Part shown: piece after piece, positions 51,088-54,059 of the stretch
Layout: each line of letters starts with the position of its first letter
Numbering within the stretch: position 1 is the stretch's first letter
The notes under the pieces: model-generated
The model's database searches: none
The model's input: the letters and a program-made list of their open reading frames with translations, nothing else
Told to the model about the DNA's origin: nothing
Origin: Promethearchaeota archaeon
Lineage (GTDB): Archaea > Asgardarchaeota > Lokiarchaeia > Sigyniarchaeales > SOKP01
Assembly (NCBI GenBank): GCA_030603385.1
Contig: JAUVXW010000028.1
Location: forward strand, 1 to 61,376
Direction of reading: 5' to 3'
Length of the DNA: 61,376 nucleotides
Position numbers and translations under genes: made by a program

Positions 51088-51369
51088 ATGGCAGAAAAAA
51101 GTGGTAGAGTTCCAAAACCCAAAACCGTAGGAAGAAAAAGAAAACAAAGAACTACAAAATTTGGTGAACCAATCAGAAGGTTCAATAAAAAAGATTATCG
51201 ATTACAAAATAAATTCGCTTTTGAAAAAGATGCCAAAGATCATAAAGAACGAGTGAAAGAAAAAGGATATCTAGCTCATGTTACCCCATTTAAGGGGGGG
51301 CATAAATTATGGGTAAGAGATACTCCTAAAAGCAGGAAATGGGAAAAAAGTTTATTAAAAGGTGATTGA
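51088..51369 (+). CDS. Small basic protein
   Basis: K/R-rich; AGGAGA RBS; SPOR-like beta-alpha-beta-beta pattern in the C-terminal half. Confidence 0.7.
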   Translation: MAEKSGRVPKPKTVGRKRKQRTTKFGEPIRRFNKKDYRLQNKFAFEKDAKDHKERVKEKGYLAHVTPFKGGHKLWVRDTPKSRKWEKSLLKGD

Positions 51370-51692
51370 ATATAACAAAAAAAAAGAAATCTGGATGGGT
51401 TAAATCTGGGAATTGGGAAATTCATACTACTCAACATAAAAAATGGGATAAAAAAGCTAGAAAAAAGGCACCTAAAAAGACAAAACCAAAAAAAAAATAT
51501 TTAATAAATCTTAAAAGAGAAAAAGCATTAGCTGGAAAAGGTTGGAAAGTTGCTAGAACAATGGGGTATTTAAAGCAACCAAAAAAAGCAATTGGCAAAA
51601 AAGGATATCCTTATGCTGTTTTAAATAAAAACAATAATTACGAAACGTTCTATACTTGGAAGGAAAAATCCTCTAAAAAAAAGAAAAAATAG
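51366..51692 (+). CDS. Small Lys-rich basic protein
   Basis: Lys-rich; overlaps the upstream stop; GGTGA just upstream. Confidence 0.65.
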   Translation: MNITKKKKSGWVKSGNWEIHTTQHKKWDKKARKKAPKKTKPKKKYLINLKREKALAGKGWKVARTMGYLKQPKKAIGKKGYPYAVLNKNNNYETFYTWKEKSSKKKKK

Positions 51693-51983
51693 GTGATCAA
51701 AATAACAAAAAAAAGAAAACCTGTAAAATACGCAAATAAGGAATATCCACATGGAAAATATAAAATTGGAACCACAATCAAAATTACAGGACAAAAGACT
51801 AAAGTAGCTAATGGAACTTTCCGAATAACGAAATTATTTCCTAAACAATCAGCTAATAAGGGAGACTCCTATTTTCTTTATAAAAGAGTTCTAAAGAATA
51901 AAAAGCTTTCAAAAAATATTAAGAGAGGTTTACGTGGTAATTGGGGTTCAATATTAGATAAAAAAGCTAAAATTATAAAATAA
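51693..51983 (+). CDS. Small basic protein, possibly SH3/KOW-like barrel
   Basis: KYKIGTTIKITG...GTFRITK pattern; abuts the upstream stop. Confidence 0.65.
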   Translation: MIKITKKRKPVKYANKEYPHGKYKIGTTIKITGQKTKVANGTFRITKLFPKQSANKGDSYFLYKRVLKNKKLSKNIKRGLRGNWGSILDKKAKIIK

Positions 51984-51984
51984 G

Positions 51985-52554
51985 GTGATTAAAATAGCAA
52001 AAAAATCAGATACTCCAAAAAAACCAATGAGGGAAATTATTGAAGAATTGAGAAAACCACCAAAACCTTCAGGGAAAACCTATATTGATGGAATTATAAA
52101 AGAGCAAAAAGAGTATAAAAAATTAGATAAATCTCATAAAAAAACCTTATTCAAAAGATCTAAGCATAAAAAATATGTTGAAATGATTTCATTTAAAAAT
52201 CCAACTCAGGCCAGAATTTCAGCAAGAAAACTAAGAAAAGAATTTCGAGAAGCAAAACGAAATGCTAAAAAACTGAGGATTGCAAGAGCTACTCAAGGAG
52301 CTTCGAATCGAGCAAAGGCAAGTGGTAAAAGAAAAAAACTTAGTACTGATAAAAGAAAGCAATTTAAAGAAATTGGTAAGATATATGATACAACTGCAAA
52401 ATCAATGTGGGAAAAATATAAACATAAAAAAAAGGCAGCCTTTCCAAAGGAAGTCTTGAAGGCTAGAAGTGAAGGAAGAGCAATTTTAACAAAAGAAGGA
52501 AAAAGAAAAAGAACTTTTCATGTTGCAACTAATGGGAAAAAATCTAAGAAATAA
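51985..52554 (+). CDS. Basic alpha-helical protein
   Basis: K/R/A-rich 189-codon ORF within the operon. Confidence 0.7.
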   Translation: MIKIAKKSDTPKKPMREIIEELRKPPKPSGKTYIDGIIKEQKEYKKLDKSHKKTLFKRSKHKKYVEMISFKNPTQARISARKLRKEFREAKRNAKKLRIARATQGASNRAKASGKRKKLSTDKRKQFKEIGKIYDTTAKSMWEKYKHKKKAAFPKEVLKARSEGRAILTKEGKRKRTFHVATNGKKSKK

Positions 52555-52646
52555 AAATTAAATTTTCAAATTTAAAGTGTTTTTAGAACACAAAAAAAAG
52601 TTAGATAAATTATAAATTAAAATTAAAGCAAAAAATGGGATAAAAT

Positions 52647-52949
52647 ATGGGAAAAAAGAAAAAAATAGGATCTACTTGGTCTAGAAGGGATCGTTTAATT
52701 AATGGGAAACCCCGACGTATATGGGTTAGAAAAATAGCAGGGAAATATGAAACAAGGACACATAAACCAGAAGTTCATGGGATTGCATTAGCAAGTAAAG
52801 TTATGGCTCAACGACCAAAAAAATCTCAAAAAATTGACAAACAACGATCACATAAGAAAAAAATAAGGCCTACAGATAAAAATATAAAAAGTTGGAAAAA
52901 ACGACCTGGATCTGCCGATATAAAAGGAGATGTTGATTCAAAAAAGTAG
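52647..52949 (+). CDS. Small basic protein with N-terminal W-R-GK-GK-TR module
   Basis: WSRRDRLINGKPRRIWVRKIAGKYETR. Confidence 0.7.
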   Translation: MGKKKKIGSTWSRRDRLINGKPRRIWVRKIAGKYETRTHKPEVHGIALASKVMAQRPKKSQKIDKQRSHKKKIRPTDKNIKSWKKRPGSADIKGDVDSKK

Positions 52950-52979
52950 ATTTATTTATAATAATAAAAAAATAATAGT

Positions 52980-54059
52980 TTGGTATTGGAAATGAGCGAA
53001 GCAGAGCTAATTCATAGTTTAAATTATAAAAGTGAGAAGTTGTTCACTGTAATTGATACCTATGATAATCAGGTATATCCAATTAAGAAAAAGGATCCAG
53101 AAAAATATAACGAAATCATGACTCAAGTTTATAAAAATACTCATAAAACGGAGCTTTCAGGAGAGAGATTAGAATCTTGGAAAGAAAATTTTCCTAATAT
53201 GATTGATCGAAAAATAGAAGCAGAGAAGAAAAAATTAAAAACAAAGCTAAAATCTCCAAAAAGAGTAAAGAAAGGCAAGGAAATTTATATAACATCTCCA
53301 TTGCGAAATCAAAATATATTGAATAAAATGGAAAAAAGGGGTTATTATTCGATTAATGCGAAAGGTAAGACAGAGAGAATGAAAGCCGGATTGAAAGATG
53401 ATGAAATTATAGCAGATTTAGTTGAGGAGATTTCAGATCCATATGGCGGGGATCATGATATGGTTGAGATTATGTATGATGATCAATTTAAAAACCATAT
53501 AGAAGAATATGAAGATCGCTACAAATATGTGTATGCTGTGGAAGATATTAAACCCAAGAAAAAGGTGGCGAAAGATGTACTTATAAGAAAAGATATTATT
53601 TCTGTTCCAAAAAAACCAAAAAAAGAAGTTGAATTAAAAAAGAAACGACCTATTAAAATAACTCCAGTAAAAAAACCCATAAAAGAGAAAATAAAATTAT
53701 TTTCATCAATTATTCTTTCGGAAAATCCTATTAAAATAACTCCAACTGAAAAATTAGAATATGTTAAAAAGAAACCTGTTAAAAAGAAGAAACCCATTGT
53801 TAAGAAAAAACCAATACCTAAAAAGAAGAAACCACCAATTAAAAAGAAGAAACCTACAGTTAAGAAAAAACCTCCTGTAAAAAAAAGGCCAATCCCAAAA
53901 AAGAAACCTTCACCGAAAGTTAAAACAATGAGAGCAAAACGGAGGGGCTCCCCCATTACGGGGCGATGGACAGCACGTTATCGAATGGTGGGAGGGAAAA
54001 GAAGAAAAGTAAAGATAAGAAGATGGAAAGGCAAAATCCAGACCCGGAATATAAATTAA
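52980..54059 (+). CDS. Protein with globular N-half, histone-H1-like KKKP repeats and C-terminal W-R-GK-GK-TR module
   Basis: About 9 (V/I/P)KKK(K)P units at 53764-53910; WTARYRMVGGKRRKVKIRRWKGKIQTR. Confidence 0.75.
   Translation: MVLEMSEAELIHSLNYKSEKLFTVIDTYDNQVYPIKKKDPEKYNEIMTQVYKNTHKTELSGERLESWKENFPNMIDRKIEAEKKKLKTKLKSPKRVKKGKEIYITSPLRNQNILNKMEKRGYYSINAKGKTERMKAGLKDDEIIADLVEEISDPYGGDHDMVEIMYDDQFKNHIEEYEDRYKYVYAVEDIKPKKKVAKDVLIRKDIISVPKKPKKEVELKKKRPIKITPVKKPIKEKIKLFSSIILSENPIKITPTEKLEYVKKKPVKKKKPIVKKKPIPKKKKPPIKKKKPTVKKKPPVKKRPIPKKKPSPKVKTMRAKRRGSPITGRWTARYRMVGGKRRKVKIRRWKGKIQTRNIN

Follow-up and report, generated by a model that had tools for sequence, protein, structure and literature searches.

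What do six consecutive genes for highly basic proteins do in the genome of a Lokiarchaeial archaeon? The question is raised by contig JAUVXW010000028.1 (C50) of the Promethearchaeota archaeon assembly GCA_030603385.1 (3.89 Mb, 30.8% G+C), and the window analysed here is this entire 61,376-base contig. An initial annotation had proposed that the six genes, here called B1 to B6, specify a multi-component genome-condensation system. We found that B1-B6 are small, cytoplasmic-type, strongly cationic proteins encoded by genuine genes. We regard it as established that these genes are real, conserved and under selection, as we do their charge, their context, their modularity and the link between B4 and pleomorphic viruses; what we infer is that the proteins bind nucleic acid and are present in particles, and that the element carrying the genes is viral. 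Our preferred reading, to which we give somewhat less than an even chance, is that a pleomorphic-virus-like Asgard element uses B1-B6 as accessory proteins that bind nucleic acid and serve, at the envelope, to neutralise or condense the element's DNA.

Six adjacent genes encode strongly cationic proteins

The six open reading frames (ORFs) and the isoelectric points (pI) of their products are as follows:

B1: 51088-51369, forward strand, 93 amino acids, pI 10.6
B2: 51366-51692, forward strand, 108 amino acids, pI 10.5
B3: 51693-51983, forward strand, 96 amino acids, pI 10.8
B4: 51985-52554, forward strand, 189 amino acids, pI 10.8
B5: 52647-52949, forward strand, 100 amino acids, pI 11.4
B6: 52980-54059, forward strand, 359 amino acids, pI 10.2

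By computation, lysine and arginine make up 29-34% of each protein, the pI lies between 10.2 and 11.4, and the net charge is +19 to +59 apiece, with a sum of +209. The proteins that flank the cluster are acidic (pI 4.0-4.9). B1 and B2 overlap by 4 nucleotides, the following gaps are 0, 1, 92 and 30 nucleotides, and the next gene begins 1 nucleotide further on. Coordinates, composition and spacing all agree with the initial description of six adjacent, tightly coupled K/R-rich ORFs between 51088 and 54059. Using a cut-off of K+R >= 0.28 with a net charge of >= 0.15 per residue, only 14 of 5061 ORFs of at least 70 amino acids genome-wide are as basic as these; six of the 14 are B1-B6 themselves, and there is no second cluster. 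When the same cut was applied to ORFs of at least 50 amino acids outside the contig, the recognisable ones resembled ribosomal proteins, as judged by eye. The six genes represent five distinct orphan families, with one module common to B5 and the C-terminus of B6.

The genes are conserved and under purifying selection

All six proteins have metagenomic homologues, at 54-98% identity. B1 has 19 homologue clusters (69-84% identity), B3 has 11 (69-85% identity, with 37 invariant columns) and B4 has 21, and the N-terminal domain of B6 is represented by 27 clusters in a library built at 50% identity. Some homologues of B1, B3 and B4 sit on metagenome contigs of 18-84 kb, the 40-kb and 84-kb ones carrying homologues of B1 and B3. 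Homologues of B2 and B5 were found among eleven JGI or NCBI metagenome contigs retrieved with B1; those of B2 occur at the related loci L010, L012, L014, L015, L017, L018 and L023, and those of B5 at L014, L016, L017, L019 and L020, at 81-90% identity. Pairwise ratios of nonsynonymous to synonymous substitution rates (dN/dS, Nei-Gojobori) were computed on the retrieved loci for five families, B3 being present in none of those loci. The values were 0.10-0.79 for B1 (mostly 0.2-0.5), 0.12-0.52 for B2, 0.24-0.38 for B4, 0.11-0.35 for B5 and 0.15-0.26 for B6. Moreover, the B1-B6 families hold invariant columns that are not lysine (W, G, Y, F and P).

These results bear on the concern, voiced in the initial annotation, that such ORFs could be artefacts of an A-rich strand. 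The coding strand of the cluster is indeed 48% A, and AAA codons dominate (186 AAA versus 46 AAG). However, homologues for six of the six genes, dN/dS well below 1 in all five families measured and the invariant W, G, Y, F and P columns refute the artefact reading, and the N-terminal domain of B6 gave a confident structural model besides; the probability that we leave to an artefact is negligible. An ORF of 145 codons on the opposite strand (53519-53956) is a phenylalanine-rich shadow of the lysine-rich frame of B6.

B4 is related to a gene of Archaeoglobus pleomorphic viruses

In a collection of phage and archaeal viruses, B4 matched a single record, pleomorphic virus 1 of Archaeoglobus veneficus (AvPV1; tblastn E 4e-5). 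The matching protein, gp07, has 126 amino acids and a pI of 11.8; it shares 42% identity over 86 amino acids with the B4 core, BLASTP matched it to B4 at E 2e-11, and comparison with the B4 family profile gave an hhalign probability of 98.1% (E 1e-13). Judged from these alignments, B4 and AvPV1 gp07 are homologues. The A. profundus pleomorphic provirus (ApPV1) has a second one, gp13, itself a homologue of gp07. Both viral proteins are annotated as hypothetical. The two Archaeoglobus pleomorphic viruses have been assigned to the proposed Thalassapleoviridae (BK065155.1, BK065154.1; PMC10919331). In both, the VP4-like fusogen immediately precedes gp07/gp13, and an ORF6-like gene and an ATPase come behind it, which puts it within the morphogenetic module; the gene is not discussed in the paper describing these viruses (PMC10919331).

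Similar to B4, both viral proteins are small and very basic, start with a basic N-terminal arm and are encoded inside a block of envelope-protein genes. The two systems differ in that AvPV1 and ApPV1 have one such gene at a fixed place, whereas the Asgard element has six, drawn from five families and placed upstream of the giant adhesin gene, and B4 stands between B3 and B5 rather than behind a fusogen. No other gene of the window had a BLASTP match to AvPV1, and B1, B2, B3, B5 and B6 had none in the phage collection. A collection of viral contigs returned nothing for B6, B4, B1 or the N-terminus of the adhesin, nor did a scan of genome contigs with B4.

Distant B4-like genes also occur on mobile elements in two other Asgard families. 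At locus L008, two of them have for neighbours a serine recombinase and an XPB-type helicase whose N-terminal arm is basic. At L009, on contig C50 of a high-G+C Asgard genome (G176), the B4/gp07-like gene adjoins a paralogous small transmembrane (TM) protein. That locus is provirus-like and has a pleolipovirus-type order: a 125-amino-acid TM protein, a spike of 1817 amino acids, a multi-TM protein of 433, an ORF of 121, a P-loop protein of 287 and a tyrosine integrase.

The basic genes form a modular array in relatives

In the window, the cluster is embedded among genes for membrane and surface proteins:

47274 to contig end, forward strand: operon-like block, on a single strand throughout
47274-51042, forward strand: three acidic membrane or secreted proteins, p369, p475 and p403 (369, 475 and 403 amino acids), upstream of B1
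54061-54378, forward strand: protein of 105 amino acids with a basic N-terminal arm and two hydrophobic helices, 1 nucleotide past B6
54375-61376, forward strand: giant adhesin-like protein (1893 amino acids, then 433 or more), running off the contig end

The number of basic genes in relatives ranges from three to ten per locus, and their order varies:

Window: B1-B2-B3-B4-B5-B6
L014: B1-B2-B4'-B5-B6
L016: B1-x-B4-B5
L019 and L020: B5-B6-B1
L017: six other small basic ORFs, then B5-B6-B1-B2
L023 (genome G255, from another genus of the family): a zinc-ribbon basic ORF, B1, B2, a TM protein with a basic arm, the adhesin

The surroundings are partly retained. The order p369-p475-p403-B1 recurs at L011, and p475-p403 is followed by basic genes at L017. 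Among loci that reach far enough, a FN3-like membrane protein lies upstream of the basic genes at L011, L013 and L017, and a giant adhesin lies downstream of them at L012, L017 and L023. The slot of the 105-amino-acid protein holds differing, unrelated small TM proteins at L012, L023 and L041.

The rearrangements respect the genes. In contigs of four studies, from subsurface, cold seep and marine sediment, joints fall exactly at gene boundaries. A joint from 51688 to 51983, seen in relatives in two metagenomes, drops exactly B3; one from 51050 to 52566 drops B1-B4; one from 51365 to 52642 links B1 to B5; and one from 54042 to 51106 places B6 ahead of B1. On some metagenome contigs B5 stands alone in other contexts, at a depth of up to 258. 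Some variant contigs in one run reached a depth of 240-260, which hints at a high-copy element, depth not being a measure of copy number. Fusions also occur: P0019 joins the C-terminal domain of B2 to a B4 homologue, and P0023 joins B1 to a GTGG-module. In the window itself, B2 and B3 are in one frame with only a TAG between them (51690-51695). All-against-all clustering of 52 basic ORFs gave 14 components, some of them merged through fusions, and the pan-array comprises at least 12 basic families.

The distribution of these genes among genomes is sporadic. Across 135 genomes of the family and 400 Asgard genomes, relatives of the element were found in the window's own genome, in G255 (B1, B2 and the adhesin) and in G007 (no basic genes). 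A search of 36 same-genus genomes for B6 came back empty, and profiles of B1, B4 and B6 found nothing in the 53 same-genus genomes among the 400 Asgard ones apart from one decayed B6-like fragment (G018). Close relatives nonetheless occur in distant sediment, seep and subsurface metagenomes of four studies.

G007 belongs to the same genus as the window's genome, and its relative of the element spans two abutting contigs (L041 and L042, on C203 and C112). The order begins with p369-like and p475-like proteins (43-46% identity), a DUF5658 membrane protein of 110 amino acids and the adhesin. After the adhesin come six membrane proteins (one of them Rce1-like), a P-loop protein, many small ORFs, a TFB-like protein and a Cas4-like nuclease. 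The right half that the window's element is missing may look like this. The initial annotation had suggested looking for the basic genes in related elements; they are present there as an array of cassettes, and absent from G007. A fixed six-part core is therefore too simple a description: the varying number and order of the genes and their absence from G007 indicate that the set is accessory and modular rather than a stoichiometric core.

Small folded domains are joined to basic arms

B1 consists of a basic N-terminal arm followed by a conserved, alpha/beta-looking domain (RTTKYGEPIRRF...GYLARITPFKGGHKLWVRDTPKSRKWE), and its core, like that of B3, is compact and highly conserved. B2 combines a lysine-rich N-terminal half with a conserved C-terminal domain (LKREKA.A.KGWKV.RT..YL..PK.A.GK.GYPYA.LNK...YE.FYTWKEK). 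B3 is a small beta-rich domain for which AlphaFold2 gave a poor model (predicted local distance difference test, pLDDT, of 58), B4 has a conserved, helical-looking core at about residues 52-146, and B5 has a basic beta-meander module at its N-terminus and a conserved basic C-terminal half.

B6 was modelled with AlphaFold2 on an alignment of 28 rows. Its N-terminal domain (residues 1-185, 52980-53534) is all-helical, with nine helices and a pLDDT above 90 at residues 11-150. A disordered K/P-rich segment follows (residues 185-325), with a tandem K3-4P core at 53778-53933, and the protein ends in a three-stranded basic beta-meander (residues 326-359, 53955-54056; pLDDT about 82 over residues 331-357). 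This meander matches the N-terminus of B5 with 38% identity over 32 amino acids (E 2e-4). B6 contains 11 [KR]2-4-P motifs, eight of them in tandem in a 52-residue core that is 48% K and 23% P, so the initial count of about nine KKKP repeats was a fair one. The core is encoded by a DNA repeat of 18-21 nucleotides, and the length of the repeat differs among relatives. In distant proteins with the B6 domain, the domain is C-terminal, and some of those retrieved have basic N-terminal arms.

None of the six proteins had a significant match in Pfam (none at E <= 1), PHROGs, PADLOC or NCBIfam. In Pfam and NCBIfam no ribosomal protein or histone family was matched, in line with the initial annotation, and no helix-turn-helix (HTH), ribbon-helix-helix (RHH) or zinc-ribbon signature was found. 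Profile searches of the PDB with alignments of B1, B3, B4 and B6 gave nothing below E 0.02, and the ESM Atlas gave no usable match for B1 or the N-terminal domain of B6. The B6 model was compared by Foldseek with PDB and BFVD and by VIA-align wide; no fold could be assigned, the best Z being 5.5 on helical pieces of 46-60 residues, and no winged-helix match appeared.

A shared cassette lies at gene starts

Several of the basic genes begin with the same short DNA cassette, which the window has twice:

51976-52008, forward strand: cassette aaaag-GTG-ATY-AAA-ATA-GCA-AAA-AAA, at the junction of B3 and B4
about 51684-51715, forward strand: second copy, at the junction of B2 and B3

It opens 19 of 50 complete basic ORFs, with ATG in place of ATA in four cases, and is found at L010, L013, L014, L016, L017, L018 and L023 as well. 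These ORFs fall into six single-linkage clusters, which stand for more than six families, as fused genes have drawn B1, B2 and others into a single cluster. An exact 22-mer of the cassette occurs once in the host genome. Because canonical starts in the same operons have the form GGAGAT-aaaat-ATG or GGTGAT-att-ATG, the geometry of the cassette fits a Shine-Dalgarno sequence GGTGAT, a spacer of four bases and AUA or AUG as the start codon. This pattern suggests that the cassette genes may use AUA, or else a GUG inside the Shine-Dalgarno sequence directly past the upstream stop. The conserved junction may also be the site at which cassettes recombine. The shared start (V/M-I-K-I-A-K-K) had been considered as a targeting peptide; we downgraded this idea, since the nucleotide form fits a start cassette, which would leave only M-A-K-K as peptide.

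A possible role in DNA compaction, and its alternatives

With a probability just short of one half, we place the array inside an envelope/adhesin operon of morphogenetic type that belongs to a strain-specific, pleomorphic-virus-like mobile element. Each protein would contribute a small folded domain with Lys/Arg-rich arms, to which B6 would add its disordered K3-4P polycation. Acting together on the nucleic acid of the element, B1-B6 would bind it, cancel its charge and compact it. The compacted DNA could then be tethered to the basic cytoplasmic tails, or to the inner face, of the membrane proteins encoded on either side, and so enter budding particles or vesicles. The array would be accessory and interchangeable, like VP2 of the fusellovirus SSV1, with cassettes swapped at the conserved gene-start junctions. 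Several of these membrane proteins carry basic cytoplasmic N-terminal arms. In support of this reading, the combination of charge and clustering is unique in the genome, the families are conserved, and the basic genes lie, tightly spaced, between membrane proteins and the giant adhesin. Further support comes from the viral homologues of B4, the B4-like gene at the provirus-like locus L009, the three-part model of B6, the near absence from same-genus genomes despite close relatives in four studies, the variant contigs at depths of 240-260 and the precedent of VP2. The initial proposal of a genome-condensation system thus stands in part: the genes are conserved and lie in a virus-like structural module, and B4 has its counterpart in a viral morphogenetic module, but they do not form a fixed six-part core.

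Several observations weigh against this reading. The G007 slot lacks p403 as well as every basic gene, and the cluster is therefore not essential to this type of element. The published description of pleolipovirus virions gives them two major structural proteins (PMC10919331), and a nucleoprotein set has no obvious place beside these. The fast turnover of gene content suits accessory or counter-defence genes better than core structural genes. No capsid, VP4-like fusogen or packaging NTPase was identified on the contig, which stops within the adhesin. Finally, the nearby recombinase (45715-46308), which is duplicated together with its 5.3-kb unit, may be separate from the basic-protein element.

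The main rival, favoured by the turnover of gene content, is that B1-B6 are delivered or early-acting effectors, a hypervariable arsenal directed against defence nucleases, chromatin or ribosomes and packaged with the DNA or expressed beside it. We consider this unlikely, although the presence, order and fusion of the genes change at gene boundaries among close relatives, the basic families number at least 12, and G007 dispenses with the cluster. Internal proteins of phage T4 offer a precedent, being diverse, lysine-rich and DNA-contacting, and one of them inhibits nucleases of the GmrSD type (PMC3012670); the adjacent island holds a GmrSD-like gene. Yet PADLOC found no similarity of B1-B6 to any known defence or counter-defence family, and B1, B2, B5 and B6 are 70-90% identical across studies, so that their sequences are not hypervariable. 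The shared start motif, moreover, resembles a translation-start cassette rather than a targeting peptide, and the B4 homologues are fixed in the morphogenetic module of Archaeoglobus viruses. That the proteins are nucleic-acid binders which are never packaged, such as regulators of transcription or replication, partition or silencing factors, or RNA chaperones, strikes us as distinctly unlikely. Small basic proteins with folded domains commonly act as regulators on mobile elements, and the B4-like genes at L008 have a recombinase and a helicase for neighbours. However, the B1-B6 genes are inside a membrane-protein/adhesin operon and not among zinc-finger, RHH and TFB-like regulatory genes as seen at L009 and L042, and HTH, RHH and zinc-ribbon signatures were not found in them.

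It is very unlikely that the genes serve the host within a chromosomal surface-protein island, in the assembly, anchoring or regulation of the giant adhesin, with no mobile element involved. Such an origin would account for a contig with no hallmark virus gene and for adhesin domains that are common to many chromosomal giant proteins of the family, and the integrase unit is possibly unrelated. Against it stand the sporadic distribution with close copies in distant sediments, the homologues of B4 in viruses, and the G007 relative, which runs on into Cas4-like and TFB-like genes and many small ORFs typical of mobile elements.

A bolder version of the packaging role, which we hold to be rather doubtful, is that an enveloped virus infecting Asgard archaea encodes its own chromatin of several proteins and packages its DNA with it; this chromatin would be made of a changeable set of 3-10 basic proteins that includes an H1/protamine-like K-P polycation, with B4/gp07 as an ancient component common to Archaeoglobi viruses. 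We know of no such nucleoprotein system in pleolipo-like or spindle viruses of archaea. If B1-B6 do package DNA, they would bring virus-encoded chromatin to a lineage whose own chromatin is central to models of eukaryote origin; if they do not, they constitute a new accessory arsenal of Asgard mobile elements. To our knowledge, few Asgard viruses are known, and we found no report of an enveloped pleomorphic one. The relation of B4 to gp07/gp13 is a first gene-level link between a Lokiarchaeial element and cultured pleomorphic viruses. The locus also defines five or more new protein families suited to tests of DNA compaction, and it reveals a cassette-type, fast-shuffling array of basic proteins.

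Comparison with known systems

A precedent for an accessory array is VP2 of SSV1, a virion protein that binds DNA, shows poor conservation and can be dispensed with, and whose gene lies within the structural block (PMC3367457). Like the array, it is small, basic, in the middle of a structural block and patchy in relatives. VP2 differs in being a single gene whose product has been shown to bind DNA and to be present in virions, and a PHROGs search detected no sequence relation to B1-B6. The internal proteins IPI-III of T-even phages are likewise a diverse, fast-changing set of small lysine-rich proteins, packed with the DNA and touching phosphates through lysine (PMC3012670). They have in common a cleaved capsid-targeting peptide and enter a protein capsid, whereas the shared Asgard start is most simply a Shine-Dalgarno sequence plus start codon, and neither a capsid nor a prohead protease is known for the Asgard element.

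B6 had been described as an H1-like KKKP protein. This holds for composition only: similar to histone H1 tails and to chlamydial Hc1 and Hc2, B6 has a disordered Lys/Pro-rich polycation, but it has no winged-helix domain. Pfam gave no linker-histone match for any of the six proteins, and neither Pfam nor NCBIfam matched the Hc1 domain or the Hc2 pentapeptide repeats in B1-B6. In contrast to H1 tails, the polycation of B6 contains almost no alanine, has a single S/TPKK-like motif (SPKR) and is internal, between two folded modules. The resemblance of B6 to H1 and Hc proteins is probably convergent.

Wyrdviruses, which are Asgard viruses of the spindle type (10.1101/2021.07.29.453957), resemble the element in having Lokiarchaeial hosts, partly from the same series of sediment metagenomes, and a small hydrophobic protein ahead of a large adhesin; in the G007 relative, a membrane-protein block likewise follows the adhesin. 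The element differs in lacking a match to the His1-like capsid protein and in that its small TM protein is not conserved among relatives. The 105-amino-acid protein of the window has no family match in Pfam or PHROGs; its shape, with two hydrophobic segments, is that of a spindle-virus capsid protein of the His1/SSV1 type (VP1/VP21), which has about 80 amino acids.

The array lies in a strain-specific island

Among the products encoded on the contig are an HhH-domain RadA, a JAB protease, leucine-rich repeat proteins and giant surface proteins. When 53 same-genus genomes were compared, synteny stopped near 38.7 kb, just past a U32 peptidase gene, and from there to the contig end the window is a variable, strain-specific island. 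At the edge of the island (38700-41403), a KTSC-DUF262 (GmrSD-like) gene and a RiboL-PSP HEPN gene form a defence-type pair. They are followed by a further unit:

41514-46796: 5.3-kb unit with an ORF of 223 amino acids, Fic, a DUF2299-like gene, a tyrosine recombinase of 197 amino acids at the end and an ORF of 63 amino acids

A second copy of this unit lies in contig C41 (5259-10981; 88-95% nucleotide identity), and parts of it are in C15. The integrase at 45715-46308 was considered as proof of a provirus border and rejected as such, its unit being the one duplicated in C41.

A simple repeat scan of the assembly detected no CRISPR array. Family genomes match the island over short stretches of DNA, but these were unconvincing as spacers and corresponded to adhesin-domain motifs or to sequence of low complexity. 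Nothing in the assembly was found to continue the contig beyond its stop within the adhesin.

Two direct repeats of 53 nucleotides (46974-47026 and 47034-47086), 96% identical and spaced by 60 nucleotides, lie in the 470-nucleotide gap before the first gene of the operon and may be a regulatory or origin-like site. Within the adhesin gene, a motif of about 55-60 nucleotides (55854-55916) recurs at 80-90% identity in dozens of family genomes, often several times per contig, and the loose ends of many metagenome contigs fall there; genes for giant surface proteins may conserve this motif at domain boundaries or for recombination.

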